From contig JAHFFW010000002.1 of NCBI GenBank assembly GCA_023247725.1, positions 160 to 64,159 on the forward strand: a stretch of 64,000 bases of DNA. Direction: 5' to 3'. Numbering within the stretch: the first letter of the stretch is position 1; the number at the start of each line of letters is the position of its first letter. Made by a program: the position numbers and the translations under genes. The stretch comes from Candidatus Omnitrophota bacterium (GTDB lineage Bacteria; Omnitrophota; Gorgyraeia; Zapsychrales; JAHFFX01). Below the pieces are notes generated by a model. That model had not been told where the DNA came from. It ran no database searches and saw nothing but the letters and a program-made list of their open reading frames with translations. This document shows, in pieces, positions 18,198 through 64,000 of this stretch.

Positions 18198-18236
18198 AGT
18201 TGCTTTTGCATTTTTTCCAGATACAATAATCCATTC

Positions 18237-20995
<2,759 letters not shown>

Positions 20996-43382: not shown

Positions 43383-43438
43383 GGGGCAGCTTGCATCTGC
43401 CACTCGTCATTTTAAAGGTTTAGTAAGGAGGAACCATA

Positions 43439-43624: not shown

Positions 43625-43667
43625 ATCGCAATTTTTAACTGAGGATTATTTACGGAGGTGACAATAA

Positions 43668-44015: not shown

Positions 44016-44063
44016 TTCCCTGGTACGATTTTCAACTGTCATTTGTGATAAGGAGGACATTAA

Positions 44064-44390: not shown

Positions 44391-44411
44391 TCCGAATGGC
44401 GCAAATCCAAC

Positions 44412-44447
44412 ATGGCTTACTCGAGAGATTTTTCTCGGGTAAGCCAT
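44412..44447 (+). terminator. intra-operon hairpin (attenuator/terminator) after the fourth pilin gene
   Basis: atggcttactcgaga-gatttt-tctcgggtaagccat: a 15-bp stem with one mismatch. Confidence 0.4.
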
Positions 44448-44505
44448 GTTTCATTATGGCACATAATTTTTAGAGGACTAGGTAGGATTCAACTTTATCA
44501 AAAAA

Positions 44506-44864
44506 TGGACCCGGTCAAAAAAACCAAAAAGGCGCAAATCATCGGTGAATATGCCGTTACTTTTTTTGTCGTGACCAGCGTCATTATTGCCATGTCTGTT
44601 TTTATGATTCGGGTGTTTCAGGCCCGGATCTTCGATGCCCGGCGCTATATGGTCAACACCGTCAAGAGTGCTCCGCACATCGGAAAAATCAGATTAGAGT
44701 ATGAGCCCTATTATACGAATACCGACACCTTGACCGACCGGACAAGCTCGGAGGAAAAAAGTCTTCTCGAAGGAGGCCATACCGGAATCTTTCGAAAAGT
44801 TTGGGATGATCATACCGCGGCGCAAACCACGAGCGAACAGCGACCACCCAAAGATGCTGATTAA
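44506..44864 (+). CDS. Flp/TadE-like pilin
   Basis: Start moved to the Met of MDPVKKTKKAQIIGEYAVTFFVVTSVIIAM (listed ORF starts at 44412, inside the hairpin). Confidence 0.5.
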
Positions 44865-44891
44865 GTGTGATCAGTAAAGTGCGGTGGAACA

Positions 44892-45236
44892 ATGCGAAGA
44901 CATCTCCAGAAACAAAATCAAGCGCAAAACCTTTCCGAGTACGTCATTGTTCTCGGACTGGTGACGGCGGTGTTTTTTGCCCTAGGGCCACTTTTTCGCC
45001 GGGGCACTCAGGCAGTGATTAAACTAACGGCTGATCAGATCGGAAATCAGGTCAATGCAGAACAGCGAGTGACTCCTCGAAGCGGTTATTTGGAAAGTTT
45101 ATATACAACGACTCGATCTGCGCAAAATAATAATACGAACGAATCTTTAGGCGTTCTGACCTATACTTACGGTGAATCGGAAGGCGCCTCATCGGATTCG
45201 ATGGTGAATCTGGGTTTCACAAACAGGTACGAATGA
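44892..45236 (+). CDS. Flp/TadE-like pilin
   Basis: NQAQNLSEYVIVLGLVTAVFFAL; 114 aa. Confidence 0.5.
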   Translation: MRRHLQKQNQAQNLSEYVIVLGLVTAVFFALGPLFRRGTQAVIKLTADQIGNQVNAEQRVTPRSGYLESLYTTTRSAQNNNTNESLGVLTYTYGESEGASSDSMVNLGFTNRYE

Positions 45237-45544
45237 TGTTGAAAAATAAAGGTCAATCAACCCTGGAGTATGTCGTCCTTATCATTGTGGTCATGGGAGC
45301 GCTCATTGCGACGAGTGATTATGTGAAACGGGCCATTCAAGGACGTTGGAAAACCTCCGTCGACGATTTGGGGGACCAATACGATCCGGCGTACGCCAAC
45401 TCAACGATCACTCATGCAACAAACGGCACCTCCATTACCAGTATCACCACCATCAATGCGACTGGCGGTTTTTGGACGAAACGACTGGATTCCTCTAATA
45501 TGGAAGAGTCCAAGGCGGGATTTACGGCGATCGGGGCCTATTGA
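45233..45544 (+). CDS. Flp/TadE-like pilin
   Basis: MMLKNKGQSTLEYVVLIIVVMGALIA; start overlaps the previous stop. Confidence 0.6.
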   Translation: MMLKNKGQSTLEYVVLIIVVMGALIATSDYVKRAIQGRWKTSVDDLGDQYDPAYANSTITHATNGTSITSITTINATGGFWTKRLDSSNMEESKAGFTAIGAY

Positions 45545-47812: not shown

Positions 47813-50800
47813 TTGATTCGTTTTCTCCATAAGATTTTTGCAAAATTTTCCCGCACCAAACTCCGTTCCGGAGGGCAGGTGGCCGTGATCCTCATCTTGA
47901 TTACGGCCATTGCCCTTATTCTTTACGCCGTGGTTTTAAATCTGGGCCGAATTTCCACCCACAAAACCCTCGTCACGATGGCTTCTTCCGTCGGCACGAG
48001 TTTCCTTGCCTCGGAAATGGCCAGTTACGCCGAGTCCATGTACCAGGTTCAATTGGGCGGAGAAAAGGGAGCGAAGGATGATACCAGCGTTTGTGCCTTC
48101 ACCGGTTGGTTTGCTGCCCTCATCAAGGTTGCTCTGGTGGTTGCGGCCCTGGTCATCATCATTGTTACGCACGGATCAGGTTGGATGATTGCGATGGCCA
48201 TCATTGGTTTGGTCGTGGCTGGCATTGGTGCTTTTATGCAGATCGCCTTTATCCAGCCCGGGATCACCAAACTCTGGAACAAACAGATGGCCGATATGTC
48301 CGAGCCGGATAATTTTGTCGAGTCGGGCATTCGCACCGCCTTGCAGGCCGTCGTGACGGACAACGAATATGTCCCGGATGTCTATGATCAGGATCTGGAT
48401 CGAAAAACCTTTGCCGCCGACGGAGATAAGATCAACCGTTTTGCGTATTATTACACGGACCGGTTGAGCCGGCACCCTAGTAACGATCCCCGGGTTGCCC
48501 GCGAATTTCAAAAAGATTTGCGCCGGCTTTTGATCACCCTGTATCTTCCGGCCGATTGCTCCGATCCCAGCAACCCGAGTGCCCATCCCTGCTGTTTTGA
48601 TCCGGCCAATAATTGGAAAGTTTTGCCGTCCTATTGCAATCAATGCTGTGTCTTTAGTGATCTGGACACTCGGATTGATCCCAACACAGGAACCTTTGTC
48701 AAAGACGAATTTGGCCGGCGGCTTTACAAAAATACTGCCCGGCCGCAGTGTTGTTATGATCCTTTGAACGAGCCCGGCGGAGCCGGGACTCGCGCCGCCC
48801 CTGACACTTATTATTGCGGCACAACCGAGACTTGTGGAAACTTGAACGGAAATGACAAGGATCCTTTTAATGCCGCAACGCACCCGGTTGCGGCTGATCC
48901 CAATGATTTGCGTTGGATTTATGATCCTTTTTGGGAAGATGAACGCAATTTTAACGTTTTATCCATGCGAGCCCGGATCGGCCGTGATGATGAAACCAAG
49001 ACCTATCGATTACCCTTTAAAGGAGGATACGATTTTCCGCCGACGATGACGCCGGATGCCCTGGGTGTTTCTCCCGGAGATATGTGGCGATTAAATGATA
49101 CCAAATATTGGGACTTAACGACTCCCATTACGACGGAGCTTCCCGACCTTAATATATTTCCCTTTCTGTACCGGTTGACCTGGGGAGTGGACCTGCGCGA
49201 TCGAACGGTATACGATGCAGAAATGACGCCCAATACCTGGCCCGTTGGGGAGCCGGAGAAGTGCCATTGGTACAATATGAATCAGTTTTTCGGTGGGGCC
49301 CCGTGTCCGCCTCCTTACAGTGACGATCCTGTGACTATGAACACCGCCGACCTGAAGGGTAATCTTCCCCTCGGGTATCCAGTTCAATTGTATCTTTCCC
49401 TTGACCCGGCGACCCTGACTTATACCAAGGCCGGGTGGGTGGAGGGGCTCGGCCAGGGCATGTGTCAGGGCTCCGCATGCGTTTCCGACAAAATTCTGAA
49501 TATCCCTGGTCTAATAACCAAGAACGATGATTGCGCTTTGGATGATGCGGCTCACCGAGATTGTGACCACGCCCTCGATCCTCCCTGGGATTGCATTCAA
49601 TATTATTCCTGGAAGCCCGGCGCGGATCGGTATTGCAATTTGAACTGGCCATACTTTGCGCGATGCGCCAAATATGGAGTTTGTTGTTTTGGCGATAGCG
49701 AGGTCGAATGTGACTGCGGCGATGGCGTTGGCGGCCCTAATTCTGCCCTGGTGGCCAGTTGTTCCGACGAAGTGCCCGGGAAATTAAGGTATATCAGTGC
49801 GCCGGACCCAGGCGATGCGTGGGCAGACGATCCGTTGGATGAATTTATTTATGGTTCCGGTGAATTTATCGCCTGGGCCAAGGCCATCGTTGAGAGTTCT
49901 CCTCAGAATTTAAACGAGAATCTGAGAAATTGGTACAGCGAAGCGGCGACCTGGATTGAACCGGGGTGTCCTCGTCCGCCTTGTTCCAGCGGTTTTGTGA
50001 ACCAATTGAATCCCGGCGCCTTGTTTCGATGGATTGATCAGTTTGATTCTTATCAAAGGAATCTGGCATTTTGGTTGGGAATGGAACGCCGCGCCGGTAG
50101 CCGTGACGAACTAGGTGATCTTTGCAACGAGGTCTGGTGTGTTCCCGGAAATCCGGATGGCAGCGTCGGAGACCCCACCGGAAAGGAGCTGCGCGATATT
50201 TGTGATGCGGCCTCCTGCCCCGCGATTTGTCCCGGCGTCAAAAAAGGAGGAACCGAAACCCTTCTGGGAGTGATCACCGACTACGTCGGAGAAGGCGCTC
50301 CGCGGCCGACGGGAAGTTTTTTTGGCGTCGATGCAGAGGGACTTCCCGCAGTGGGCAATCCCACCGGCGTGATCAATTGTTTGAATTTCAATGCCCTCGA
50401 CGGCGATGTGATTGATCCTTATACGGATCCATTTACCGGCCAAATTTTTTCCGATGCCAATGATCCTGCCAATGCCCTTTCGGGAAATTCCGCTAAATTC
50501 GTGCGGGCCTGGGAAACCTGCGATGAGACGACCACACTCATGCTGCCGCGCTCCTTGCTTCATCCCGACCGGAATTTTGACACCAATGAATTCGTGCCTC
50601 CGCATCATCCGAAAAAAAGGGTTGATCTCGGAGTCAATGGCCAGTATAGCGATCCGGAGTTTTTCAAAAAATGTTTGGACGATTGCAATCCGGGACCAGG
50701 TAGTGGAGACTGGGGGAAGTATTGTGAGCCAGCGACTGAGTATGGGGAGCCCACGCCTTTCCGCGGACCAGCGAAGGCAACGATTCCCACGTACCCGGTC

Positions 50801-52987
50801 TTTGATGCCCCTCACGTTATACCGGATTGGGATAAGGCTTTAGCGTTGGAGGCTTGCAGGCAGAATGCAGGGCCGGATTCATGCGGGGTTAAATATACCA
50901 CGTGTGCGAACAACGAAGCTCAATGCGAGCTCGATGTGCAGAATTGCAATAACTGCCTTACAGGCACCATCCCTCCAGGCTGTGATCTTCAAAGGACCCA
51001 ATGTAACAGTAATTGCACCCGGTGCTGGAATACCGCTTACGTACCCTGCTATAACAGCTGCAATACGAGCTGTACAAATTTTCCTTGCCCAAGTGATCCG
51101 TCATGCTCAACACCAAATCCGGCGTATTGTTGTGATCCAGCTAATTATTATAAGCCTTACCCCGATTGCTCGACATATTGCGCTCAGGGCTGCTCCTGTA
51201 ATCCCGGATACTCGAACTGCTCTGACTATTGTCAGGCATTCTACATTAGCTGCTTTTCAGGATGTACGGGGGGGTGTTCTCCAAGTCTTTGGGCTGGCTG
51301 TGCAAATAGAAAGGCTGGGGGAAGCTGTGATGGCAGTCCACCTCATTCTTGCGCGTGTAATGAACAAGCGTGCCGCGATCAGGCCCAATGTACCATCACG
51401 GTGGGCAGTTATACCGCCAATAAAGACTGCGATGATATTGTGATGAGGACTTGCCCCTGCACCGGCACTTATGAAACCTGTGCAGCCCTATGTCCTGACA
51501 AAGCCGCCTGCGAGGCAGCCTGTCTTGATATCGCTATTGATTCCTCCGTGGAATTGCCCGGCGTGCAATTACGGCCAGGCTTTCAACCCGACCCGGTTTG
51601 TTTAAAAAACTGCCGCGATATAAATAAAACCTGTCTGAATAATTGTCGAACTACATATCAAGACTGCATGGCAACAGATTCGGCCCTTCCCGGCCTTCCA
51701 TCGGGAGGATTCGTCGACTGCGCTTGCGGTGATGCCTATTGTTCCTTTGGCTGTAGTGACTGCCCGCCGGCGGGTGGTCCTAACTGTCAGTTGCAACAGG
51801 AAATCGATAATGCCTATGGAAGCTGTCTTCAGTGGGGTGACGGCAATCCCTTTTATGAGATGGTCTGGCGCTCGTGGATTTTGTCCCAGGGTGACTGCGT
51901 GGAGCAGGAACCTCAGCTGGCGTCACCCGACGGAGATGGGTTCTCACGTTGGGATTTTGATCCGCTCATTTATGACAGCTATCGCGAAGCCATCAGCCAA
52001 GTCGAAAAGTTCAAACACCGGGCAAAGTTTCTTCAAAAAGTGGATTTAGGGGCACGCAAGGTACTCCCCATGGCCGGACGCATCATGGATGAGTTCAAGA
52101 TGTTTGTCTACGGGCCGGATTTGAATTTTTCCATTAATGGGACGGTGGACAGCGGCGTGGAAAAATTGATTTGCCAGCGAAAAAGCCTGGAAGGGAGACT
52201 CACGCCCGGACAATGCGCCTGCGAAGTGATGGAAGACGGATCAACCCAGTGCGGCACCTTCTTCGGCAACGCCGGCGGCGGGACCGAATTGCCCTATCAT
52301 GTTGTTTATGGCTGGCAAAGCGAACGCCAGCCCGGAAAGGCGCGCGGGACCTGGCACTTTGTGCGCGTGGACGCCAAAATTCCCGGGCGCTGCAAGGGCC
52401 AATGCTATACCGATCGGGCGGCCGCCGAACAAAAAGCTGGAGTTCCCGTTGAGGAATTGGAGCCAGGATTTCCGATTGTCAAGTCCTATACCCGTCATTG
52501 GGGAACCCGGCGCTGCTATTCTCTCGGCGACAGTTTTGATAAGGTCAATACCTGCGACGATGAAGGAAAATATGACGATGCGAAGCAGTGCTTCCAAGGC
52601 GGGGTGGTTATGACCCAGGTTGTTCGTTATGATGAAGATGCGGATCTGTTGTTCAAATTTGCCAACAATTTCAATATTTGGAAGGCAAAATTTTTCCATC
52701 CCCAGGTGGGCCCGCCGATGGGATCGTTGGATAATTTGGAGAGCATCTGTCCTCCGCTCACGGACCCCGCCATCGGCGGCAATCCACCCATCGTCCAGAA
52801 AGGGGCTTTTATGCTGAATCGTGTCAGTGACAATGAGGCTTGTTGGAATACGGTTAAGTCCTATTTGAAGCGCGGCGTGGCCTCCAAAACGTGCGCCCAA
52901 TATTACTTCCATAATGAAACCCCGCGCGGGATGAATCTCAAATTTATTCCCTGTCCGGGGAGAATCACGGTTGATGACGTGAATTAA
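47813..52987 (+). CDS. giant TadG-like pilin-fusion protein with extremely cysteine-rich extracellular region
   Basis: 1724 aa; N-terminal TadE/TadG-type segment (RSGGQVAVILILITAIALILYAVVLNLG) plus further TM helices, then about 1500 aa with well over 150 Cys in CxxC/CxC/CC arrays (e.g. CNNCLTGTIPPGCDLQRTQCNSNCTRCWNTAYVPCYNSCNTSCTNFPC...). The long antisense ORFs in this region are artefacts of its GC-rich codon usage. Confidence 0.7.
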   Translation: MIRFLHKIFAKFSRTKLRSGGQVAVILILITAIALILYAVVLNLGRISTHKTLVTMASSVGTSFLASEMASYAESMYQVQLGGEKGAKDDTSVCAFTGWFAALIKVALVVAALVIIIVTHGSGWMIAMAIIGLVVAGIGAFMQIAFIQPGITKLWNKQMADMSEPDNFVESGIRTALQAVVTDNEYVPDVYDQDLDRKTFAADGDKINRFAYYYTDRLSRHPSNDPRVAREFQKDLRRLLITLYLPADCSDPSNPSAHPCCFDPANNWKVLPSYCNQCCVFSDLDTRIDPNTGTFVKDEFGRRLYKNTARPQCCYDPLNEPGGAGTRAAPDTYYCGTTETCGNLNGNDKDPFNAATHPVAADPNDLRWIYDPFWEDERNFNVLSMRARIGRDDETKTYRLPFKGGYDFPPTMTPDALGVSPGDMWRLNDTKYWDLTTPITTELPDLNIFPFLYRLTWGVDLRDRTVYDAEMTPNTWPVGEPEKCHWYNMNQFFGGAPCPPPYSDDPVTMNTADLKGNLPLGYPVQLYLSLDPATLTYTKAGWVEGLGQGMCQGSACVSDKILNIPGLITKNDDCALDDAAHRDCDHALDPPWDCIQYYSWKPGADRYCNLNWPYFARCAKYGVCCFGDSEVECDCGDGVGGPNSALVASCSDEVPGKLRYISAPDPGDAWADDPLDEFIYGSGEFIAWAKAIVESSPQNLNENLRNWYSEAATWIEPGCPRPPCSSGFVNQLNPGALFRWIDQFDSYQRNLAFWLGMERRAGSRDELGDLCNEVWCVPGNPDGSVGDPTGKELRDICDAASCPAICPGVKKGGTETLLGVITDYVGEGAPRPTGSFFGVDAEGLPAVGNPTGVINCLNFNALDGDVIDPYTDPFTGQIFSDANDPANALSGNSAKFVRAWETCDETTTLMLPRSLLHPDRNFDTNEFVPPHHPKKRVDLGVNGQYSDPEFFKKCLDDCNPGPGSGDWGKYCEPATEYGEPTPFRGPAKATIPTYPVFDAPHVIPDWDKALALEACRQNAGPDSCGVKYTTCANNEAQCELDVQNCNNCLTGTIPPGCDLQRTQCNSNCTRCWNTAYVPCYNSCNTSCTNFPCPSDPSCSTPNPAYCCDPANYYKPYPDCSTYCAQGCSCNPGYSNCSDYCQAFYISCFSGCTGGCSPSLWAGCANRKAGGSCDGSPPHSCACNEQACRDQAQCTITVGSYTANKDCDDIVMRTCPCTGTYETCAALCPDKAACEAACLDIAIDSSVELPGVQLRPGFQPDPVCLKNCRDINKTCLNNCRTTYQDCMATDSALPGLPSGGFVDCACGDAYCSFGCSDCPPAGGPNCQLQQEIDNAYGSCLQWGDGNPFYEMVWRSWILSQGDCVEQEPQLASPDGDGFSRWDFDPLIYDSYREAISQVEKFKHRAKFLQKVDLGARKVLPMAGRIMDEFKMFVYGPDLNFSINGTVDSGVEKLICQRKSLEGRLTPGQCACEVMEDGSTQCGTFFGNAGGGTELPYHVVYGWQSERQPGKARGTWHFVRVDAKIPGRCKGQCYTDRAAAEQKAGVPVEELEPGFPIVKSYTRHWGTRRCYSLGDSFDKVNTCDDEGKYDDAKQCFQGGVVMTQVVRYDEDADLLFKFANNFNIWKAKFFHPQVGPPMGSLDNLESICPPLTDPAIGGNPPIVQKGAFMLNRVSDNEACWNTVKSYLKRGVASKTCAQYYFHNETPRGMNLKFIPCPGRITVDDVN

Positions 52988-53003: not shown

Positions 53004-53345
53004 ATGTCATTCGCAAGATTTCTTATGAAACGATTTGATTTTTTAACGAAAGGCGCTTCAACACTTGAATATGCCACGATGATCGTGGTCCTTATTGCGG
53101 TTATGTTGATCATGCAGAAGTATGTCTGGCAGGCGATCTCGGGTCGCTGGAGGGCGGCCGGTGATTCCTTTGGTTTTGGCCGGCAATACCTGCCCTCCAG
53201 AACAAAGGAATACGCCGTTTTTATGGTGAGCCCCGATCCGTCGAAAGATTTTTGGTACGATACGAATTGTGCGGAAAAAGCGGGTTGCTTGCCGGGAAAT
53301 CAAACGTGTTTTCAAGGATGTCTGAGCACCGTGACGCTCCCTTAG
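53004..53345 (+). CDS. Flp/TadE-like pilin with C-terminal Cys pairs
   Basis: KGASTLEYATMIVVLIAVMLIM prepilin motif; C-terminal CAEKAGCLPGNQTCFQGC. Confidence 0.55.
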   Translation: MSFARFLMKRFDFLTKGASTLEYATMIVVLIAVMLIMQKYVWQAISGRWRAAGDSFGFGRQYLPSRTKEYAVFMVSPDPSKDFWYDTNCAEKAGCLPGNQTCFQGCLSTVTLP

Positions 53346-53369: not shown

Positions 53370-54227
53370 ATGATTTTTATTATTATCGGAATGGTCTTTG
53401 GCGCCGTCGGGGTTCTTTGTTATGCGGCGGTTCCATTATTTTTGAATACCACGGTCGCCATTAGTCAGAGGCGGTCCCAAACGTTTGCCAATAAAATGCA
53501 GCGCGTGGTGATGAAGTCCGAAATTCAACGGATGTCGCAATTTTATGTGATCGCGCCGGTTCTGTTTGGCGCTCTTGGCTATTTTGTTTTACCTCCGGAG
53601 TTGAGGGTGATCGGTGTCGTGGTCGGCATCGTGCTCGGGTTCGTGGGCCCGAGCATCTACATCAAATTTTTGGTCAGACGCCGGAAGGATAAATTTAATC
53701 ACCAGCTCATCGATGCCTTGATGATCATGTCAAGTTCCTTTCGCGGGGGATTGAGTTTGATTCAGGCCATGGAGGCCGTCGTCGAGGAAATGCCCGACCC
53801 CATCAGCCAGGAAATTGGCACAGTTCTGAACGAAAATAAAATGGGTGTGTCTCTGGAAGAGGCCTTGAACCATTTGTATGAACGCATCCCTTCCCCGGCC
53901 CTGCAACAAACGATCACGGCCATTCTTTTGGCGAGGGAAACCGGGGGTAATCTGCCGGTTATTTTTTCCCGCATCGTCAATTCCATCCGGGAACACAATA
54001 AAATTCAGCAAAATATTGACACCTTGACTTTACAGGGAAAGATTCAGGGCTCGGTGATGAGTCTGTTGCCCATTGGTTTCGCTTTTATCGTTTATTCAAC
54101 TAACCCGAAATTTTTTGACAGCATGGTGAATACAGAAATGGGACGCATGCTCCTTGTCTATGCGGCGTTTTCGGAGTGCATCGGCGCTTACTTGATCTGG
54201 AAGATCAGTACGTTTAAGGATTTTTAA
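53370..54227 (+). CDS. tadB: Flp pilus assembly inner-membrane protein TadB
   Basis: 285 aa; T2SS-F domain (…ALMIMSSSFRGGLSLIQAMEAV…); polytopic membrane protein. Confidence 0.8.
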   Translation: MIFIIIGMVFGAVGVLCYAAVPLFLNTTVAISQRRSQTFANKMQRVVMKSEIQRMSQFYVIAPVLFGALGYFVLPPELRVIGVVVGIVLGFVGPSIYIKFLVRRRKDKFNHQLIDALMIMSSSFRGGLSLIQAMEAVVEEMPDPISQEIGTVLNENKMGVSLEEALNHLYERIPSPALQQTITAILLARETGGNLPVIFSRIVNSIREHNKIQQNIDTLTLQGKIQGSVMSLLPIGFAFIVYSTNPKFFDSMVNTEMGRMLLVYAAFSECIGAYLIWKISTFKDF

Positions 54228-54306: not shown

Positions 54307-55203
54307 TTGACTATGATAACCGTCATTTTAATGATGATCTTCTTGTCCGTTTTCAGCTTTATCCTGGGTGTGGCGCCGGTGGATTGGGAGAATCGGCCGC
54401 GGCTGCATTTGTTTGGCGAGGAAATGATCCAGGCGAAACGAAAGAAAAGTCCTTTAACGCCAGTTCTAAGTTTGACGCGCAAGATCGCGCTCATTAACAA
54501 ACCCTTCACCATCGGGCATCTGGGTAAGAGGATTAGCCGGGATCTGGCCATGGCCAGGGTCAACCTCACTCCAGAAGAGTTCTTCTTTATTAAGGAAGTG
54601 ACGATCATCGGAACATTGGCTTTATCTTACCCTTACGTTGAACCGGATATGCTGGTGTTCTGGGTTCTCATTGGAATCGCCTTCGGGTATATGTTGCCCG
54701 AGTTTTGGTTAAAGGGAAAGATCAAGAAGGTCAGAAATACCATTGTTAAGGAATTGCCGGATTCCATCGATCTTTTGACACTGTGCGTTAATGCGGGATT
54801 AGATTTCATGTTGGCCCTCAAGTGGGTCGTGGAAAAATCACCGCCTTCGGTCATGATCAGTGAATTCAACACACTGATGCAAGAAATTAATCTGGGCAAA
54901 ACCCGTCGAGACGCCATCCGAGATCTTGCCACCAAATATGAATTGCCAGATTTATCCACCTTGGCCCGCACCCTCATTCAGGCGGATAAAATGGGAACAT
55001 CCGTAGCGGAGGCCTTAAATATTCTTTCCGAAGATATGCGGCTGGCCCGATTCCGTCGAGGCGAGCAATTGGCCTTGAAGGCCCCCCTTAAGATGCTTGT
55101 GCCTTTGCTGCTTTTTATTTTCCCGGTTGTGGGAGTTCTCGTCGCCGGGCCCATCTTTCTCGATTTTATTCAAAATAATCCTCTGCAAGGTCTCGCGCAG
55201 TAA
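54307..55203 (+). CDS. tadC: Flp pilus assembly inner-membrane protein TadC
   Basis: 298 aa; T2SS-F domain (…LPDSIDLLTLCVNAGLDFMLALKWV…). Confidence 0.8.
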   Translation: MTMITVILMMIFLSVFSFILGVAPVDWENRPRLHLFGEEMIQAKRKKSPLTPVLSLTRKIALINKPFTIGHLGKRISRDLAMARVNLTPEEFFFIKEVTIIGTLALSYPYVEPDMLVFWVLIGIAFGYMLPEFWLKGKIKKVRNTIVKELPDSIDLLTLCVNAGLDFMLALKWVVEKSPPSVMISEFNTLMQEINLGKTRRDAIRDLATKYELPDLSTLARTLIQADKMGTSVAEALNILSEDMRLARFRRGEQLALKAPLKMLVPLLLFIFPVVGVLVAGPIFLDFIQNNPLQGLAQ

Positions 55204-55225
55204 ACCCCGTAAAATTTCTAGATAA

Positions 55226-55252
55226 GCCGCGACTTCGTCGGCGGCTTTTTTT
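55226..55252 (+). terminator. rho-independent terminator after tadC
   Basis: GC-rich stem gccgcgac/gtcggcggc followed by T7. Confidence 0.5.
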
Positions 55253-55281
55253 CTACGCGGTAAAATATTTTTTTTACCAAT

Positions 55282-55319
55282 CCCGCATTGGTATTGAGAC
55301 AGGCTAATGCGGGTTTTTT
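55282..55319 (+). terminator. second terminator-like hairpin
   Basis: cccgcatt(N16)aatgcggg followed by T6. Confidence 0.45.
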
Positions 55320-56143
55320 ACGACTTTATTTTCCCCCGAGAAAAAGATCCATTTTTTGCATGGATTACCTGGCGCAGCGAAGCCGCAACCAAAAGGAATT
55401 CGGTTATGGTTAGGATGCCCGTTTCGGGTTTCGGTGGCGTCTAGCGGCTTTTTAAAACCGTTACCGATGGACGCATAACGATACCGGGATCGTTACCGAT
55501 CAACGACAAACCAAAAACTTTGCTAAAAAAAAGTTTTATGCATTTGGCAATGCAGATTCCCAGAGTAATTGATTTTAAATCAAAAAGATCGGTAATGCAG
55601 GGTTAATCTATGTCCATTCTAATAAATAATGTCCATTAATAAAAAATTTTGAATTATGGTTTCAGAAATTTGAGGAAATGATGGAATGGAGACCCTTGCC
55701 GTGCTTCGCATAAAAAATTGTAAGCGCTGTTAATATCTCTTGGTCCTCCTTACACGGCATTTTTTTAAAACTCAATGAACCACCCCGCAGCAAGCTGACG
55801 GGGTATCCACAGCAAACTGCCAAAAGGAAGCGCAGCAAGCTGCGGGGAATTATACCCAAAGAGAATTAAACTTTGAATAAAAAAAATCTCACGCAAAATT
55901 AATATTTGGCAGTGGAAGTCAGGAATCGCGTGATTTTCCTGGTTGAAATTTTTTTGCGGTTTGTTTTGCCACGCTCGACGGAAAAAATTTAAAAAGATAA
56001 AAGTCATTTTAAAAAAATAGAAATTCCTTTACACGTTCGAAACAAAAAATCTCCCATTGGAGGTTATTTTTTTGATTTTTTTAAGAGACATGTAAGTTGT
56101 TGATATATTTAAACATTTATCTCTAAATTAGCTTGCCCCTGGC

Positions 56144-56172
56144 TTGTCACACTTTTACAATAATGTTATACT
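56144..56172 (+). promoter_or_regulatory. sigma70-like promoter candidate for the giant ORF
   Basis: TTGTCA -35 (56144-56149), 17-nt spacer, TATACT -10 (56167-56172); about 320 nt upstream of the ORF start. Confidence 0.3.
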
Positions 56173-56490
56173 TTCACTGCATCGCCCGAGGGATCTCTTT
56201 CGAAGGGCATTTCCGACGGGAAAAATGAGAAACCCTCCTCTTTAATTCAAAAGGCTTTTTGAATTCCAACTGTTTTACCAAGCTCATACAAAATTGAATC
56301 GACCCCATCAAAACAACCAGCCGCTTCACTTAATTTTTGATAATACTAATACTACTTTAATTGACTGTTTGTTTTCGATGGGGAATTTGATTCGCAGCTG
56401 GCTCATCCTCCGAGCCTCAATGGTTTTTTGTCCTTACCGAATAGAGCCCGTATAGTCCAATTTAGATTGGACAATAATGGGATTAGGTGG

Positions 56491-59400
56491 ATGGATAACA
56501 GAATGGACAAAAAAGATCCTGCGATCGCTGAAGATGGCGAAAGTATCGAAAGTCCTATTAATGATTATATTGGACAATTAGATATCCATCTTAGCAAAGA
56601 GCGCAAGCGCTTCAAAAGCCGCTTTAAACAATGGATTCGAAATGTGGCTTTTGTGGTGGTCTTCGTTTTTACTCCGGAGCAGATCAGCTGGGCATTCAAT
56701 TACGACCCCACGGTTTTATGGCGCGATAAATTCGCTCACCAAGCCCAGGTTGCTTCCTCTGTGGCCTCTGCCGAAGAAATCTCCTCTGCCAATATTGCTG
56801 CCAGCGTTGAGCAGCTTCTCAACCAAATCGCCTACAAAGAAAAATCCCGCATCCAATTAAAGATCACCAATTCCGCCATCGCCAATTCCGAACTCAACAC
56901 TCGTGATCTGGCCATTGACTCGAATGTCTTTTTTACCAAAAACCGCATTAAAGAGATCTATGATTGGTTAAAAAGTCCCGACATCCATCCGCTTAATTGC
57001 GGTATTTATGCCCTTCGCGATATCCTTTCGAGCCACCAAATTGAAATTTCCCTCGAAGAGCTCTCCGTTGCGACCTTGATGGTCGATCTCATGAATAATA
57101 TCGTCCGTCCCGGCGAGGAAAAACTCAAGACCTCGCTTTACGCGATTAATAAAGTCGTCGATGCCTATGGACTGAATCTTGAGCCTTTTAAATTGGATCC
57201 CAAAAATGTTCTTAAAGTCAAGCCACCCTTCATTGCCAATTTTGGATCTGAACACTTTGTGACGGTCACTCGCTTCGAAGGCAATACAGTTTATTTTATG
57301 GACATTGGCCGTTCCATGTCTTTGCCTCAAGACGAGTTTGTTTCCCAGCTGAGCGGCTTTATCCTGGCGGCAGAACCCACCGACTTGGGAATCGCTTATG
57401 AGCCGGTTCCCGACCAGATGATGGCCTTCATCTGGGGCAATCGCTGGCACAGCCGGCACCATCTGCTTCCTGGCCTTATCAGCGGCAAATCACTGGCCAT
57501 CAGCACGGCCATCAATGTGGGCATGATGTTTGGCGGTGCCTGGCTTGGCTCTGTCACGATGGGAAAAAACTTTACCACTCTTTTAGAGATTGCTATGACG
57601 CTTGGACAGGGAGCAAGCATTCTTGGCGAAAGCGTCGCCACCATGTGTGTCATGGCGGGCAAGTGTAGTGCGAAGACTGCCTTTTTGCTCAATATGGGAA
57701 TCAGTGCCGGTATAACGATGGGCGTCAGTGCCATGGCTTCGGCGGGAGCCTTTGGGCCCTATAGCAATCCGACAAGTTCCGTCAGTGCCCTGACCCAGAT
57801 TAACGCCCTTCTCGATAAACTTGGTATCGTGGGAGACGTGATCCAGCACATTGCCGGGGGTTTCAGCCACATTGCTAAAATTTTTGGAAGATTTTTTGGT
57901 ATCGGTCAAGGAAGGATTTTTGCTCAAAGTCCTTTCGGTTCATTTTTACAAAATATGGGGATGATCGGGCCTCATCAAACTTTTGTTGGGCAAATATTAG
58001 AAGGGGTCGCCAAAGGGATAGGCTGGGGCTTTAAACAATTGGCCAAGGTCTTTGGCTATAAAGAAAAACCAGCGCCTTCGGTTGACCCGACCGCGACAGT
58101 TGATCCTACGGCCGTATTGGAAAAAGGAGTGGTCGTCAAAGCCGGGGCCGTCGTGGAATCCGATGTTGTTTTAAAATCCGGGGCGGTCGTCGAAGCCGGT
58201 GCCATTATCAAAACGGGAAGCGTAGTTGGATCTGGAGCCCATATTGGCGAACACGCGATGATCGGAGCTAATTCACAGATTGGCGCCAATGCAACTATTG
58301 CAACCGATGCCATCGTAGGAGCACACGCCGTGATCGAAAAAGGCGCTACTGTTATGGCAGGCGCGACGGTGAGAGCGCAGGCCCGAGTTTTAGCGGGCGC
58401 GACCGTCGGGGGGGGCGAAAACGTGCCCATGGGAGCAATATTTACCGGCGAAGTGGCCGAGAAAGTTGCCAATGTTGCCCAGATTAGTGTGGTCCAGGCC
58501 TTGGGTCGATTTGGCGTTGGGTTTACCAAGGGTTTTGCCTTGGGGGTTGGGGTGGGCTATGTTGAGTATGAAATCGCCCAGATGATCCAAGATGCCCTGG
58601 GGGAAGATGCAAACCCCATTATCGTTCAGACCATCCTCACGATTGGAACCTCGGTTGGCGGCGCTCTGGCGATGACGGCGATCACGCATTTTGCGGATAA
58701 GGCGTTCCATGTGGGTTACGGAAAATTGACCGGCGACGATAAAGCGAAGGCAAAGGCAACAGAGGCGGCTGAACAAAAGGCCATGCGAGCTACATATGTT
58801 TATCAGTCTAGTGAGTCTAATTTGGAAGACCCTAATGATGTTTTTGGCAAAGCGATACTCAAAATGGAGAGGGATGAATTCGTGTTCCAAAAGGAGTTCA
58901 GCAAAGTCAATTCCCAATTTAGTTTCATCGGTCAGTTGTTCGCGGCCTTTAAGGGTGAATTGCCTAATATTGTTGGTCAATTGAGCGGCATGGCTATTCG
59001 TCTTTTGGCTTATCGATTAGCCGGCGGAAAAAATGCGAAGAAAAATATTGCGGATGCGGATACGAATTTTTCCCAGGCCCTGGGCCAGATCGGCAACACC
59101 ATCGGTTCCTTGGGATATTCTGGGTTGAGTCCCGCAGCCCGTCGGCAGATGCAAGAAAAACAACAAACATCGTGGGGACGTTTGCTTCTTCGACGACTCA
59201 CGCAGGGCGCCCTTGCTGCAGCCCTGTATCTTGGCCTGGACAAAATTGAAGATGGGTTAATTAGAAATCAAGGTTTTTCGGGGCTGGGCCCAGGGATGGA
59301 TGCCTTGGAGGTCCGGGCATTGTTGTTTTTGGGGTCAGCGGTTGTGGTTGGCTTTTCTAAGGCCTTGACCCTGAAGCTGGTGGGATATTTTCCCGTTATA

Positions 59401-62400
59401 TCGCTTACGCAAGCCCCCCAAGGTTCAAACCCCGGCGATGTTATTGAGATAGACGGGAAAAAATATATCGTGACGAAGGATCACCAAAAGATTCAGGAAG
59501 GGCAACGGGCCTCTTCCGGACTCTTCGACCAGATTTTCTACAATACCGGTAAACAATTCCAATTGGCCATGCAGAATTATTTTTCGGGTGGCGGGGCCTT
59601 CGGGTATCTGGATGAAGACGAGGACGGCAATGTTATATTCCGATGGGATCGCGGCAAAAGGGGTGAACCAGGATACATTCCTGCCACTAATCAGATGCTG
59701 GAATTTGCCACGGCATTGACCCGCATGAGCGGCTTCAGTGTGGAAACAGCCCTGGAAGCAGACAGTGTCTGGAAAACCATGCTCAAAGAAAATACCGAGG
59801 CCAAAGGCGACGAAGTCTTACCGACCCAGGAGGAAATCAATGATCCGGCCAAATGGGCCGCGTTTATTAAGCGGGTGCGCAAGGACGACAAGAAACGGGC
59901 GAAGAATTTTGAAGCCATGGTGGCCCAAGGCAAGAAAGACCAGATTATGACTCTGGAAGACCAGTTCAGGATGACGTGGCTTCGCAGCCATAACCCTGGG
60001 ACAGCCGAGATGAGTTATCTGGCCAATATCACTCTTCCTGCCTCGATCATTACGAATATGGAAACGACCATGGGAGTTATTTTATCAACCTTACCCGCCG
60101 GCGCCCGTCAGGCGTTCTACAATTTAGGATTCACTCTTTACGACACGGTTGGATTAACAACAGACAATGGCACCATTATTCTTTATAACGCTGACAAGGA
60201 CCCATCGATTCCAGGAGTGATTACCGGTGATTTGGTAGGGACACGTTTTCTTTTGTTTGGTCAAAATCTGGGTCAACTTCAAGGCCAGATGGCTAGTAGA
60301 ATTGTGACGACGGTCCAGGTCAATGAAGAGGACTGGGAGAGTTTTCAAGACAAGGCGAAGCAATTAGGCATCAAAATAAAAAAAGGCAAGAAAGAAGGTC
60401 ATAAACAGACCGTCAATTTGTTGTTATCTCCGGAGCAGTTTGAGCAAATTGTGCGAACGGCAAAAGACAAAAAAGGAAATGTGGTTTATAGCGTAGCCCT
60501 CAATCCGGTAACGAAAGACAATGCTCTCACGTCCAAAAAAGACGGAGCAAATTTGGCTTTGGGAGATATCTTGGCCATTACAGAATCCGGTGGCGGGGGA
60601 AGCATTACGAAAATTACAAAGAAAAAGGATCAATCGTTCGAGATTGAGATTGCCATGCCCGGCGGTAAAACTATGACCAGAATCCTCTCCGCCGGTGAAA
60701 CAGTTTCCATTCTCGGCTCGGGCTTGGCTTTAGGTGATACGGTCGCTACGACTGAGTCAGAAGGGGCTTTGGGCAAAATTAATAAAATTACGAAATTGCC
60801 TAATGGGAAATTCCAGGTGGAAATCTTGATGCCAAACGGCGGCATTATCACAAAGACCTTGTCCGCCGATAGCCATATTAAAATTGTGTCCAATGAACTT
60901 TCTTCCGCAATCTCCCCGCTGGCTGCCAAGGTCAGCGTCTCCTATGACGTGAATGACTGGTACAGTATGAACTTCTCTACGCCTGTTTTAAGCCTCGCTG
61001 CACAAAAGAAGTTAGGCTTATCTTATAAGGACACCTATCTGCGGTATCGTGATCAAGTCGGTAAGATCAAGCAGTTTGATCAGGAAGTTCCGGTCCTGGT
61101 TAAGTCCACCGATGACAACAAATTAAATTTTTTGCTCAATGTAGATAATGCCTATGTTGCGATGGGTCAGGATGAAAGTTATGTGGTGGATCAGAAGGGG
61201 GAGATTGCTGCCCAAAGGCTAGGCAAAAGCCTCAGCTTTGATCTTCAATTTAAACACCCTGGCGGTCTGGTCGATCAAATTTTATATTCGTTCGGTGGTC
61301 CGGCGGGAAAACAGTTTGTGCAATACATGAACAACAGGCGTATTGGTCGTACGGGTCTGGAAATCTACCGTATTGTCGCCGGAAAAGTTACGGGAGACCG
61401 ATTGAATTCTTATGCCAGGGTCATGGAAGGGGAGAATCCAAAGGAGGTTTATAAGAACCTTTCTCAGCAAGAGGCGATTATTTATGCTGGTGGATATTTT
61501 ACCTTGCCTGGAACTTCTGCCAACGTTTCCAATGCCGGGTTTTCCTTTATGATCGGTATATTGAATGGACAAAGGGAGATCGCCCTCGAGCCAGGTTTCA
61601 ATAAGCCACTTTCTGTGCACATCGGACGCCTTCCTTTAATTGGTCGGTTGAAGACCGCGATTTTGATTGGAGGAAAACCGGTCGCCATGCAGATTCCAGG
61701 AGAAGGAAAAGCCGCCGAGGTCCAAGAAATCGGCGTGCAGGGGGTTGATTTGTCGTTAAGCGGTAACGCCGAAAATTTTGGAGCGCAGATTTCCCATTTC
61801 GTCAAAGGCGGTTCAACGCTTACTTCGATGGACTACATTAAGCGGCGCTATTTTCGTGAATTGGCCAGTAATCAACGAGCTGGGGAAAATGCTTATACTG
61901 GCAATGACCAGGATAAAGCCGTCTCTTCGGGAACCGCTAATGCAGAGGAGTCCGGCAAGCCAAAGGCTGGTTTCAAGGTTGATGAAAAAAATGAATTTTT
62001 CCTTTTTACCGCTGGAGAGGGCGAGGCCGGAATGGGAATCGATCTGGGAGGTCTGGCTGATCTCAGTGGACGGATGCGCAATGATATGCTTCCCGGAATT
62101 CAGGTGCTGTTGCCAGATCATATTAAGAGGGTTGTTACAAAGAATGCCAAGGGAGAGATCGTCTATGCCAAAACCAATGCCCGGGGAGAACCACTCTATG
62201 AAGAAGATAGCGTGGCCCTGGCAACGGTTATGAAGCTCACCGATGATCAGAAGGTTTATCGTCGCAAAAAAGACGGACAGCTTGTGTCAGCGGGCGAACG
62301 AGTCAAGGGAGAGGAATATGATGCAGGTTTGTGGGTGATGAATGATAAGGGTGAAATTGAATTTAAAATACCACGACATAATTCTCTCGTCGAGGTCGGG

Positions 62401-64000
62401 GCCTTTGGAACCCGATATGGCGGAGGTCAGGCGTTTCTTCACCACGGAGCAGAAGAGGCCGATAAGTTTCTTTTAGCAAGTTTGCATAACCGGCGCGTGC
62501 ATGTCTCGCTGGGACTAGGACCCGGGGATGAACCGGCTTTCGTGAGCGGCATTGGACCAAAGCAAGGCCTCATCTTAGATACCCAGGAGTTTGAAAAAAA
62601 TAGTTTTATTGAAGCCAAGGGGGTCAAAGATCGCTTTACTGCAGATTATCTCAGCACGCATGGGTCATGGAATGTCATGATTACCGGTGTTCTTAAGAAC
62701 ATGAATGTGGAAGAGCTCGCTAAGCTTTTGGGGAAGGACGGGGGCGTGCGAGGTTATATCCAAGGCCTCGAGGCACTTTCTCCGGAAGAAATGAAGACGA
62801 TTGCTGTCGTCAGTCAAATTTTGGGGACGAATCCTGAGGACCCAGAACAAATGCGTCGGTTTGAATCCTGGTTTGGCAAAATCGCACCGGATCGCCAGAA
62901 AAAACTTCTTGCTGAGATTGACAGTTTGATGGCCGAGGTCGAGGCGCAGCGAACCGGCGCTCCTCAATTGACGGCGGAGCAACGCGAACAGCTGGCCAAG
63001 CTTTTGCCGGAAGTGAATAGTCATATCCAAGGTCGGGCGGAGATTTCCCCAGAGGATAAAGATTTGCTCAATCGTGTCAATCAGGCCTTTCAGGAGAGCC
63101 TCAATGATCCAGAAGAGATGGCTCGGCTGAGATCTCTGTTTGGAAAAATCACATCAGGCTCGCAAGACGACGTGATCAATCAGATAGCCAGCTTAATAGT
63201 GGGGAAGGCGTCTTTAACCCCACAGCAACGAGTGGCCTCAGCCAATGATATCGTGGACGCCCTTAATGCGGATGAGATGGAACCCCTGCGAGTTCGCTTC
63301 ATGAATGCCTTGGGTGATAAGGATTATATTGGCCAGACGATTGCTTTACAAGTAAAAGGGAAGGATCAGCTTTTTGCGCAGGCCATTAAGAGTGGGAATA
63401 AGACCAGCAATGCCGCTTCGACGCAAGATAATTCTGGCCTGCTGGAAGATTACATCATGCTGACGAAGTCGAAGGGACAAATTGCCAATACGGCTTCCGT
63501 GGATTTGGCGATTTCCGCTAAAGAAGGCGAAGCCGTCTTGGAGATCAATACGCAAGGGGATCTTTCGACCCATCAATTCACCCCGGGGGCGATTTGGAGG
63601 CTACCGCGGGCGGGGCCGTCGTATCTATATCAGGTGGCCTCTACGGATTTAAGAGGCAACACGGTGACGCCACTCGGAACGTTCAAAGGCAACGACGCCT
63701 TAAGTAAGATTTTAGATGGTAATATTCCCGATCTTCCTCTCCCGGCGCTGCAGTTGGCCGGAAGAACGCCTAAAGAGGAAGTAACCGTTAAGCTAACTTC
63801 TAGTGGTGAAGAGGTTCCATCAACTGCCGATCAATCTGCCGGCATCTTATCAAACCAGCCAACGGGAGCAGGCGCTTTCAATAATCCATTTACATCGTTC
63901 ATTCGAGTTGCAACCGGCCCGACGCAAAACAATAATCAAGAACCGGTTTCTGAAGTAGATTTTGCTAAGATTATCAACAAGGATGTGAATGCTGCCGGCG
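56491..64000 (+). CDS. giant membrane-anchored protein (partial, over 2500 aa, runs off window end) with C39/papain-like peptidase domain
   Basis: Frame 1 is open from the ATG at 56491 (SD-like aggtgg upstream) to the window end. The ORF track omitted it because it has no stop in the window, and the track lists no other frame-1 ORF there. Hand translation shows a TM helix (WIRNVAFVVVFVFTPEQISWAF); a C39-like Cys/His region (HPLNCGIYALRDIL ... GSEHFVTVTRFEGNTVYFMD); a hydrophobic Gly/Ala/Met-rich membrane region; hexapeptide beta-helix-like repeats (GAVVESDVVLKSGAVVEAGAIIKTGSVVGSGAHIGEHAMIGANSQIGANATIATDAIVGAHAVIEKGATVMAGATV); and an internal tandem duplication (ITKITKKKDQSFEIEIAMPGGKTMTRILSAGETVSILG / INKITKLPNGKFQVEILMPNGGIITKTLSADSHIKIVS). 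Confidence 0.7.
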   Translation, partial: MDNRMDKKDPAIAEDGESIESPINDYIGQLDIHLSKERKRFKSRFKQWIRNVAFVVVFVFTPEQISWAFNYDPTVLWRDKFAHQAQVASSVASAEEISSANIAASVEQLLNQIAYKEKSRIQLKITNSAIANSELNTRDLAIDSNVFFTKNRIKEIYDWLKSPDIHPLNCGIYALRDILSSHQIEISLEELSVATLMVDLMNNIVRPGEEKLKTSLYAINKVVDAYGLNLEPFKLDPKNVLKVKPPFIANFGSEHFVTVTRFEGNTVYFMDIGRSMSLPQDEFVSQLSGFILAAEPTDLGIAYEPVPDQMMAFIWGNRWHSRHHLLPGLISGKSLAISTAINVGMMFGGAWLGSVTMGKNFTTLLEIAMTLGQGASILGESVATMCVMAGKCSAKTAFLLNMGISAGITMGVSAMASAGAFGPYSNPTSSVSALTQINALLDKLGIVGDVIQHIAGGFSHIAKIFGRFFGIGQGRIFAQSPFGSFLQNMGMIGPHQTFVGQILEGVAKGIGWGFKQLAKVFGYKEKPAPSVDPTATVDPTAVLEKGVVVKAGAVVESDVVLKSGAVVEAGAIIKTGSVVGSGAHIGEHAMIGANSQIGANATIATDAIVGAHAVIEKGATVMAGATVRAQARVLAGATVGGGENVPMGAIFTGEVAEKVANVAQISVVQALGRFGVGFTKGFALGVGVGYVEYEIAQMIQDALGEDANPIIVQTILTIGTSVGGALAMTAITHFADKAFHVGYGKLTGDDKAKAKATEAAEQKAMRATYVYQSSESNLEDPNDVFGKAILKMERDEFVFQKEFSKVNSQFSFIGQLFAAFKGELPNIVGQLSGMAIRLLAYRLAGGKNAKKNIADADTNFSQALGQIGNTIGSLGYSGLSPAARRQMQEKQQTSWGRLLLRRLTQGALAAALYLGLDKIEDGLIRNQGFSGLGPGMDALEVRALLFLGSAVVVGFSKALTLKLVGYFPVISLTQAPQGSNPGDVIEIDGKKYIVTKDHQKIQEGQRASSGLFDQIFYNTGKQFQLAMQNYFSGGGAFGYLDEDEDGNVIFRWDRGKRGEPGYIPATNQMLEFATALTRMSGFSVETALEADSVWKTMLKENTEAKGDEVLPTQEEINDPAKWAAFIKRVRKDDKKRAKNFEAMVAQGKKDQIMTLEDQFRMTWLRSHNPGTAEMSYLANITLPASIITNMETTMGVILSTLPAGARQAFYNLGFTLYDTVGLTTDNGTIILYNADKDPSIPGVITGDLVGTRFLLFGQNLGQLQGQMASRIVTTVQVNEEDWESFQDKAKQLGIKIKKGKKEGHKQTVNLLLSPEQFEQIVRTAKDKKGNVVYSVALNPVTKDNALTSKKDGANLALGDILAITESGGGGSITKITKKKDQSFEIEIAMPGGKTMTRILSAGETVSILGSGLALGDTVATTESEGALGKINKITKLPNGKFQVEILMPNGGIITKTLSADSHIKIVSNELSSAISPLAAKVSVSYDVNDWYSMNFSTPVLSLAAQKKLGLSYKDTYLRYRDQVGKIKQFDQEVPVLVKSTDDNKLNFLLNVDNAYVAMGQDESYVVDQKGEIAAQRLGKSLSFDLQFKHPGGLVDQILYSFGGPAGKQFVQYMNNRRIGRTGLEIYRIVAGKVTGDRLNSYARVMEGENPKEVYKNLSQQEAIIYAGGYFTLPGTSANVSNAGFSFMIGILNGQREIALEPGFNKPLSVHIGRLPLIGRLKTAILIGGKPVAMQIPGEGKAAEVQEIGVQGVDLSLSGNAENFGAQISHFVKGGSTLTSMDYIKRRYFRELASNQRAGENAYTGNDQDKAVSSGTANAEESGKPKAGFKVDEKNEFFLFTAGEGEAGMGIDLGGLADLSGRMRNDMLPGIQVLLPDHIKRVVTKNAKGEIVYAKTNARGEPLYEEDSVALATVMKLTDDQKVYRRKKDGQLVSAGERVKGEEYDAGLWVMNDKGEIEFKIPRHNSLVEVGAFGTRYGGGQAFLHHGAEEADKFLLASLHNRRVHVSLGLGPGDEPAFVSGIGPKQGLILDTQEFEKNSFIEAKGVKDRFTADYLSTHGSWNVMITGVLKNMNVEELAKLLGKDGGVRGYIQGLEALSPEEMKTIAVVSQILGTNPEDPEQMRRFESWFGKIAPDRQKKLLAEIDSLMAEVEAQRTGAPQLTAEQREQLAKLLPEVNSHIQGRAEISPEDKDLLNRVNQAFQESLNDPEEMARLRSLFGKITSGSQDDVINQIASLIVGKASLTPQQRVASANDIVDALNADEMEPLRVRFMNALGDKDYIGQTIALQVKGKDQLFAQAIKSGNKTSNAASTQDNSGLLEDYIMLTKSKGQIANTASVDLAISAKEGEAVLEINTQGDLSTHQFTPGAIWRLPRAGPSYLYQVASTDLRGNTVTPLGTFKGNDALSKILDGNIPDLPLPALQLAGRTPKEEVTVKLTSSGEEVPSTADQSAGILSNQPTGAGAFNNPFTSFIRVATGPTQNNNQEPVSEVDFAKIINKDVNAAG

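Follow-up and report, generated by a model that had tools for sequence, protein, structure and literature searches.

The 5′ part of a giant gene with a predicted signal anchor and a C39 peptidase domain beside a Tad-like pilus locus in an Omnitrophota genome

We analysed a stretch of 64,000 nucleotides from a Candidatus Omnitrophota bacterium (contig JAHFFW010000002.1; hereafter "the window", to whose positions and forward (+) strand all coordinates refer unless another record is named), which ends in a single uninterrupted reading frame directly downstream of a Tad/type II secretion system (T2SS)-like locus. The frame is probably the 5′ part of an Omnitrophota giant gene of the class with a signal anchor and a C39 domain; it would be transcribed separately from the tad genes and would encode a protein that is inserted with its N-terminus in the cytoplasm, processed, and displayed as a surface coat or adhesin working together with the Tad-like pilus. 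Because an N-terminal C39 domain and a preceding Tad/T2SS-like locus have already been published for giant genes of this phylum, the locus is, judged from its sequence, a further example of a known architecture.

Frame 1 is open from the ATG at 56491 to the last position of the window (56491–64000, +), which amounts to 2,503 codons without a stop. An initial annotation, made from the letters alone, had described an open reading frame (ORF) of more than 2,500 residues that is cut by the window end, lacks in-frame stops between 56491 and 64000 and is missing from the accompanying ORF list; re-reading the frame confirmed all of this, the ORF being absent from the list because the listing leaves out ORFs that run past the window end. 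Stops make up 5% of the codons in frames 2 and 3, and the natural logarithm of the probability of such openness by chance is about −128 (~e^-128). In each of five 1.5-kb blocks, codon usage of frame 1 correlates with that of housekeeping genes in the window (r = 0.74–0.81), the correlation of the other two frames being near 0, and this uniform signal argues that the whole stretch 56491–64000 is coding. The ATG at 56491 is backed as the start by an MD(N/E)(K/R)xD N-terminus that relatives share. An ENA contig (ERZ27297570; 81,506 bp), found by an exact match of the 285-residue TadB-like neighbour, carries a product of 8,278 residues that starts at window position 56491. The giant gene is at least 8,278 codons long, and its first 2,503 codons lie within the window; the domain content reported here was read for residues 1–2503, and at least 5,775 further residues are on record beyond the window. 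The last 333 residues of the visible ORF had no match in a scan of JGI metagenomes, and the 8,278-residue product was not among the proteins that a protein search retrieved.

The same annotation had assigned to this ORF a transmembrane anchor, a C39-like peptidase domain, beta-helix repeats and a tandem duplication, and all four were recovered by independent analyses. Residues 1–50 form a hydrophilic tail that ends in a strongly basic stretch, KERKRFKSRFKQWIRN (residues 35–50), and a hydrophobic helix (residues 51–69) follows immediately in the hydropathy profile; by the positive-inside rule this helix would be a signal anchor with its N-terminus in the cytoplasm. It runs into a juxtamembrane motif, F-x-PEQ-x-SWA-xx-Y-x-P-x-VLW (residues 60–77), with invariant columns across relatives, helix and motif together spanning 56641–56721 (+). 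The C39 cysteine-peptidase domain occupies residues ~100–310 (56788–57420, +). Pfam family PF03412 (Peptidase_C39) matches residues 169–297 with an E-value of 3e-10 and a score of 40.4 bits (gathering cutoff, 22), and an AlphaFold2 (AF2) model of residues ~100–310 reaches predicted local distance difference test (pLDDT) scores of 70–90. In a Foldseek search this model has the papain-like C39 fold, the top match in the PDB being the double-glycine protease 6mpz (TM-score 0.70), followed by the C39 domains of HlyB and PCAT1, 3b79 and other C39-like domains. Cys170, His255 and Asp271 do not vary among seven sequences; in an alignment of 13 sequences the counterpart of Cys170 is again invariant, and conservation at the His and Asp positions is at least 90%. 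The HFVV...ND motif of 6mpz pairs with His255 and Asp271, and the residues just before the cysteine (H166, P167, L168 and N169) are invariant as well. Because the Cys-His-Asp triad is kept in the relatives, the C39 domain is probably an active protease. Gly/Ala-rich hydrophobic helices (residues 325–421; 57463–57753, +), apparent both from hydropathy and from the consensus of 13 relatives and marked by a conserved C-x-M-x-G-x-C motif, close the family-wide module; beyond residue ~440 the coverage by tblastn drops.

A protein search returned six homologues, all partial and all with PF03412, which match only residues ~1–440 of the query; the three that are named are from Candidatus Omnitrophica. 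We collected further relatives from species-representative genomes with the peptide patterns FxPEQ[AVI]SWA and [IV]HPLNCG[VI]Y. The N-terminal module (residues ~40–440) was found at 70 loci in 70 species-level genomes, essentially all of them Omnitrophota metagenome-assembled genomes with a few labelled otherwise. The Velamenicoccus archaeovorus locus is not among the 70 loci that these patterns retrieved. At 65 of the 68 loci scored, the fetched DNA ends before the ORF does; where the flank comprises the full 10 kb, the ORF exceeds 3,500 residues. Three relatives (L012, L025 and L047) carry the same N-terminal module and reach a stop after ~1,035, 566 and 1,000 residues, respectively; shorter variants, pseudogenes and assembly errors are all conceivable. 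Conservation in tblastn comparisons drops past residue ~440, and the protein is hypervariable from residue ~450 onward. Beyond the module, sharing is confined to one locus, L050 (CAYJRN010000011.1; region 10001–20728), and a few weaker cases. L050 shares residues 647–1252 at 34% identity and residues 2131–2372 at 27% identity and is the best partner for comparing the variable part. Among 13 relatives scanned over ~3,600 residues each, Peptidase_C39 was found in 12, together with one OmpA domain and nothing else.

The first recognizable element of the variable part is a left-handed beta-helix (LbH) at residues ~528–665 (58072–58485, +), identified by matches to Pfam (Hexapep; E = 5e-12, five stretches), NCBIfam and PDB sequences. 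The PDB sequence matches, PglB-ATD, LpxD and LpxA, have E-values of 1e-9 to 1e-8; the NCBIfam scores lie far under their cutoffs (e.g. 56 vs 207 bits) and cover the LbH core alone. In the alignment to 4m98 a threonine pairs with the histidine of the VDHD motif, which we take, from PglD, to be the catalytic residue, and neither Pfam nor NCBIfam places a flanking substrate-binding (nucleotide-sugar) domain beside the LbH within residues 1–2503. We read the LbH as a structural beta-helix rather than a proven acetyltransferase. It was the sole match of a PHROGs search and, being absent from the 13 relatives scanned, appears private to the window protein. Peptidase_C39 and Hexapep are the only two Pfam families above cutoff in the 2,503 residues.

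Two further hydrophobic segments are candidate transmembrane helices, one at residues 710–728 (58618–58674, +; Kyte-Doolittle mean 1.68, without charged residues) and one at residues 943–961 (59317–59373, +; mean 1.87), and hydropathy shows no comparable segment between residues 961 and 2503. Two internal duplications were detected by tile-wise Smith-Waterman alignment; a BLAST self-comparison missed both. In duplication A (60544–60864, +), residues 1352–1400 align with 1409–1458 at a local alignment score of 115 as compared to a shuffled-tile maximum of 51; its tandem units of ~57 residues are 59% identical in DNA and are each predicted by AF2, at low confidence, to form a three-stranded beta meander. 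In duplication B (62746–63177, +), residues 2086–2140 align with 2175–2229 (score 90 against the same maximum of 51); its cores of ~55 residues are spaced 89 residues apart, are helical in the AF2 secondary structure and share 64% DNA identity. With units only 59–64% identical in DNA, the duplications are old and do not represent an assembly collapse. Residues 1301–2500 had no match at E <= 0.001 in an exhaustive HMMER search of 1.84 billion representative proteins, a library that probably under-represents very long proteins, given that L050 does share residues 2131–2372.

The giant ORF is separated from tadC by 1,287 nt (55204–56490) of AT-rich sequence (34–42% GC) that contains no ATG-started ORF of more than 80 residues. 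Two intrinsic-terminator-like hairpins, recognized by sequence and fold, stand at the beginning of this gap: hairpin 1 after tadC (55224–55252, +), consisting of AAGCCGCGACTTCGTCGGCGGC followed by T7, and hairpin 2 (55282–55319, +), consisting of CCCGCATTGG...CTAATGCGGG followed by T6. The RNA fold of 55204–55340 has a z-score of −4.55 compared to shuffles; both hairpins are putative terminators. Further downstream, a scan located a putative sigma-70-type promoter (56144–56172, +) with a −35 element TTGTCA, a 17-nt spacer and an extended −10 element TGtTATACT, scoring 10 out of 12 including the TG. The block around it is conserved at the nucleotide level in six related loci and ends ~300–345 nt before the ATG (window, 56141–56193, +; L002, 3546–3598; L032, 9639–9689; L035, 9648–9699; L049, 9518–9569; L050, 9606–9658; L071, 9654–9705). 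Its core AATAATGYTATACTT, invariant in L002, L032, L035, L050 and L071, goes together with TTGTC of the −35 element, although several of the species concerned have proteins that are only 40–60% identical. Of 22 weaker profile matches elsewhere, 14 lie on the same strand 149–440 nt upstream of a giant ORF, which is the corresponding relative position, so that a dedicated promoter followed by a long untranslated region (UTR) looks general. Transcription of the giant gene would start just 3′ of the promoter, leaving a predicted 5′ UTR of ~310 nt (56180–56490, +) in which a hairpin, GTCCAATTTAGATTGGAC, lies just before the start codon.

The initial annotation had called the entire upstream region a 1.2-kb leader. 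A gap of 1,287 nt is indeed present; however, it is mostly intergenic, made up of terminators, spacer and promoter, and only the last ~310 nt are likely to be 5′ UTR. A structured 5′ UTR or riboswitch was considered and rejected, as the fold of the predicted UTR is modest (z = −2.26) and its sequence is poorly conserved beyond the promoter. No Rfam family reaches its gathering score in the leader, the only match, IS128 with 28.8 bits against a gathering score of 80, being regarded as chance. Across relatives, the gap between TadC and the giant ORF has a median length of 887 nt, and gaps above ~2 kb mostly hold an ORF of more than 170 residues. The spacer between tadC and the promoter (55783–55847, +) contains two copies of CGCAGCAAGCTG(A/C)(C/G)GGG, 45 nt apart, which also form an inverted repeat, CCCCGCAGCAAGCTG / CAGCAAGCTGCGGGG.

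The location of the giant ORF beside a pilus machine, as had been annotated, is substantiated by a Tad/T2SS-like system encoded at 33686–55203 (+) and delineated by Pfam scans and pilin translations. Among the 53 loci with 4 kb or more of upstream sequence, 52 have homologues of TadB and TadC upstream of the giant ORF, and homologues of the 1,724-residue and 113-residue proteins of the window are found upstream in most related loci. In the window, the system begins with a Rotamase_2 peptidyl-prolyl isomerase (33686–34696, +), RcpC (34693–35514, +), a secretin (35527–37839, +), a ParA/TadZ-like and CpaF (T2SSE) fusion ATPase (37864–40029, +) and a DUF192 protein (40033–40386, +), all assigned by Pfam. 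Seven Flp-type pilin or pseudopilin genes (43233–45544, +), recognized from their translations and the G|QxxxEY motif, are followed by the 1,724-residue protein (47813–52987, +), which is dark to Pfam, the 113-residue protein (53004–53345, +), the TadB-like T2SSF protein (285 residues; 53370–54227, +) and the TadC-like T2SSF protein (54307–55203, +), the latter two again assigned by Pfam.

Several of these genes have features of their own. The secretin combines Secretin and T2SS-T3SS_pil_N domains with two TonB_C-type stretches at its C-terminus (residues ~556–620 and 690–767), TonB_C on an RcpA-like secretin being an unusual fusion. The 721-residue ATPase comprises a ParA/MinD-like (TadZ-like) part at residues 4–240 and a CpaF/T2SSE part at residues 367–647. 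A 645-residue ORF without Pfam match (40783–42720, +) is located between the ATPase and DUF192 genes and the pilins, with gaps of 396 and 636 nt. The seven tandem pilin genes encode 49–150 residues, each with a K-G|Q-x-x-x-E-Y/F-like site and a hydrophobic helix. The classical Flp G|QxxxEY site is cut by A24 peptidases and not by C39 peptidases. With this site, rather than a double glycine, in the pilins, the C39 domain was rejected as the pilin-processing protease; no A24 prepilin peptidase was identified among the proteins scanned at 28547–55203, a range that begins after the first 28 kb of the window. The 1,724-residue protein shows hydrophobic helices at its N-terminus and matches nothing in Pfam or PHROGs, and its start differs among gene callers (1,669 and 1,702 residues in other records). 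It had been labelled "TadG-like"; this label finds no profile support, since TadE/TadG-like domains (PF07811/PF13400) gave no match to the first 200 residues at a cutoff as loose as E <= 5, nor to the whole protein, which is nevertheless syntenic in most relatives. The giant ORF has no sequence similarity to this neighbour or to other window proteins and no paralogue among them.

These data can be assembled into a proposed mechanism. The tad operon would stop at the two terminator hairpins, and the giant gene would be transcribed from its own sigma-70 promoter ~320 nt before the ATG. The basic N-terminus and the first hydrophobic helix would insert with the N-terminus in the cytoplasm and so place the C39 domain and most of the remaining protein outside the cytoplasmic membrane, where the helices at residues 325–421, 710–728 and 943–961 may give further anchoring. 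At the envelope, processing by the C39 domain may concern its own polypeptide or a partner, and the long, fast-diverging remainder, for which relatives were found only within these giant genes, would form a surface-exposed coat or adhesin acting with the Tad-like pilus in contact with a host or prey. This last role is taken from published work on V. archaeovorus and other Omnitrophota, so that attachment or predation is to be read as a hypothesis of the literature. A number of observations weigh against the proposal. Its topology is based on the positive-inside rule and hydropathy alone. The oxyanion-hole glutamine, which we assume from ComA and PCAT peptidases to lie about six residues before the cysteine, was not identified ahead of Cys170, residue −6 being Asp164, which varies among the relatives. 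No double-glycine substrate was found, the neighbouring small proteins being pilins with G|QxxxEY and not GG. Adhesin, glycoside hydrolase and SecA-like domains were not detected by Pfam or NCBIfam in residues 1–2503, the single-sequence AlphaFold model of residues 1301–2500 is unusable (mean pLDDT 34.7), and two thirds or more of the giant protein lie beyond the window.

An alternative that we consider unlikely regards the conserved N-terminal module as a docking or processing part of the Tad machine and the remainder not as a membrane-anchored coat but as cargo that is cut by the C39 peptidase and released through the secretin. The restriction of conservation to the N-terminal module, the nearly invariant placement after TadB/TadC and the invariant catalytic triad would all fit such an export route, and cleavage into smaller products has been raised in published papers too. 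However, the giant gene appears to have its own promoter and is parted from tadC by two terminators, additional hydrophobic helices extend as far as residue 961, no cleavage motif was identified, and the processing sites of the Flp pilins are of the classical type for A24 and not C39 peptidases. It is rather doubtful, too, whether the N-terminal module could serve as a coupling device that attaches giant, hypervariable proteins to the Tad-like machine and cleaves itself to release or display them. If true, proteins with lengths from thousands to tens of thousands of residues would be exported and processed by a route that had not been recognised before, and the variable part would be a fast-evolving determinant of host range.

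It is improbable that the protein is a cytoplasmic or membrane-bound multi-enzyme scaffold, corresponding to the "multi-enzyme metabolic cluster" class, instead of a surface adhesin or predation factor. Such a class has been described by Nielsen and Lui, the LbH block resembles sugar acyl- and acetyltransferases, and at least two thirds of the protein lie beyond the visible part. Yet neither of the two Pfam families above cutoff in the 2,503 residues is a metabolic enzyme domain with a substrate-binding partner. In the 4m98 alignment the LbH has a threonine at the NeuD/PglD-type catalytic histidine and it is not accompanied by a nucleotide-sugar binding domain, and the positive-inside rule would place the bulk of the protein outside. 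C39 domains are typical of bacteriocin or PCAT-like ABC (ATP-binding cassette) transporters, and the peptidase domains of PCAT and HlyB are the closest sequence and fold matches of the window domain; nonetheless, a bacteriocin or type I secretion (PCAT-like) exporter, or a substrate of one, is very improbable and already contradicted by domain content, because no ABC membrane or ATPase domain is present in 2,503 residues, while the C39 domain, preceded by a signal anchor, would lie outside the cytoplasm, unlike in PCATs, and no gene for a double-glycine leader peptide is nearby. Equally improbable is an artefact, be it a chimeric or collapsed assembly or non-coding sequence, for which the earlier stops in L012, L025 and L047 might speak and against which stand the uniform codon usage along the ORF, the divergence of the duplications (59–64% DNA identity), the same gene model on a separate public record and the same architecture in 70 independent genomes.

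The reading as an anchored, C39-bearing surface protein leaves the current picture of the giant genes unchanged, and specialists will find the locus largely as expected. Omnitrophota giant genes rank with the longest known genes of all organisms; as a hypothesis of function, ultra-small uncultivated bacteria would use them to contact or attack host cells. What the locus sharpens is the description of the part that is conserved across the phylum (residues ~40–440), with its transmembrane anchor, juxtamembrane motif, C39 domain with intact triad and hydrophobic helices. The conserved promoter ~300 nt before the ATG provides evidence for giant genes as separate transcription units. Practical handles are at hand as well: the module patterns gave 70 species-level loci in one scan, and the C39 domain, being small, lends itself to expression and testing.

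That giant ORFs occur beside Tad pili in host-dependent uncultivated lineages, as the initial annotation had stated, is published for Omnitrophota (PMC10066038; bioRxiv 10.1101/2023.11.21.568195; bioRxiv 10.64898/2026.06.07.730766). According to Seymour et al (PMC10066038), most Velamenicoccia genomes have giant ORFs and more than half of them have Tad complexes, and peptides of the V. archaeovorus giant ORF were ~3-fold more abundant in attached cells (PMC10066038). This ORF, of V. archaeovorus LiM, has 39,678 residues and is of the "Archaeovorin" type according to Kizina et al (2022), as relayed in PMC10066038 and bioRxiv 10.1101/2023.11.21.568195. West-Roberts et al (2023; bioRxiv 10.1101/2023.11.21.568195) described Omnitrophota giant genes with an N-terminal C39 domain that are preceded by a T2SS/Tad-like locus, in a set above 30,000 residues, and Nielsen and Lui (2026; bioRxiv 10.64898/2026.06.07.730766) defined, in a set of at least 10,000 residues, a cluster of 24 proteins with PF03412 architecture and found Tad or secretion-system flanks in 13 of 14 giants. 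The published description of C39-type giant genes also places small PilZ genes and genes for carbohydrate import downstream of them. The words "promoter" and "intergenic" are not mentioned in either preprint, and the conserved promoter and UTR seem to add a little to this literature, as do the precise limits of the module and its motifs.

Among known systems, the large ORFs of Patescibacteria, Nanohaloarchaeota and Chlorobium chlorochromatii (PMC10066038) are likewise very large, poorly conserved and associated with the membrane or surface in host-dependent microbes with small genomes; no sequence relationship to these adhesin-like ORFs of episymbionts was detected, and they have not been reported with a transmembrane-C39 module or Tad synteny. 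With hexapeptide acyl- and acetyltransferases (NeuD/PglD, LpxA/LpxD) the window protein has in common the left-handed beta-helix of hexapeptide repeats. The window domain has the fold of the C39 domains of PCAT and AMS ABC transporters (LahT150, 6mpz; PCAT1) and of the inactive C39-like domain of HlyB, with a TM-score of 0.70 to 6mpz, and it keeps the conserved Cys-His-Asp triad as in active double-glycine proteases. Unlike the PCAT and AMS domains, it lacks a fused ABC transporter, follows a signal anchor and is predicted to be extracytoplasmic, and no glutamine was identified at the usual oxyanion position.

The 39,678-residue protein of V. archaeovorus is, like the window protein, a giant membrane-associated protein of an Omnitrophota genome that encodes a Tad complex, which in V. 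archaeovorus is expressed, and a role at the cell surface, directed at prey, has been proposed for it. Archaeovorin-type giants unite on one polypeptide glycosyl transferase/hydrolase, methyltransferase, NUDIX and SecA DEAD-like domains; these defining enzyme domains were not found in residues 1–2503, and the Archaeovorin or Dockerin subtype cannot be assigned from the visible part. From the published C39 giants the window protein differs by its 8,278 residues on record, which are below the sets of >30,000 and >=10,000 residues unless the record is cut by the contig end, by its hexapeptide LbH block, and by the lack of a SecA-like, glycosyl hydrolase/transferase or dockerin domain in residues 1–2503. 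It agrees with the giants of West-Roberts et al and of Nielsen and Lui in its Omnitrophota origin, in a C39 domain adjoining an N-terminal signal or transmembrane segment, in multiple transmembrane segments, in an N-terminal region otherwise without known domains and in extreme divergence outside a few domains. Finally, its upstream locus corresponds gene for gene to that of the West-Roberts giants, with Rotamase_2, RcpC, secretin, T2SSE, class III signal peptide pilins and two T2SSF genes.

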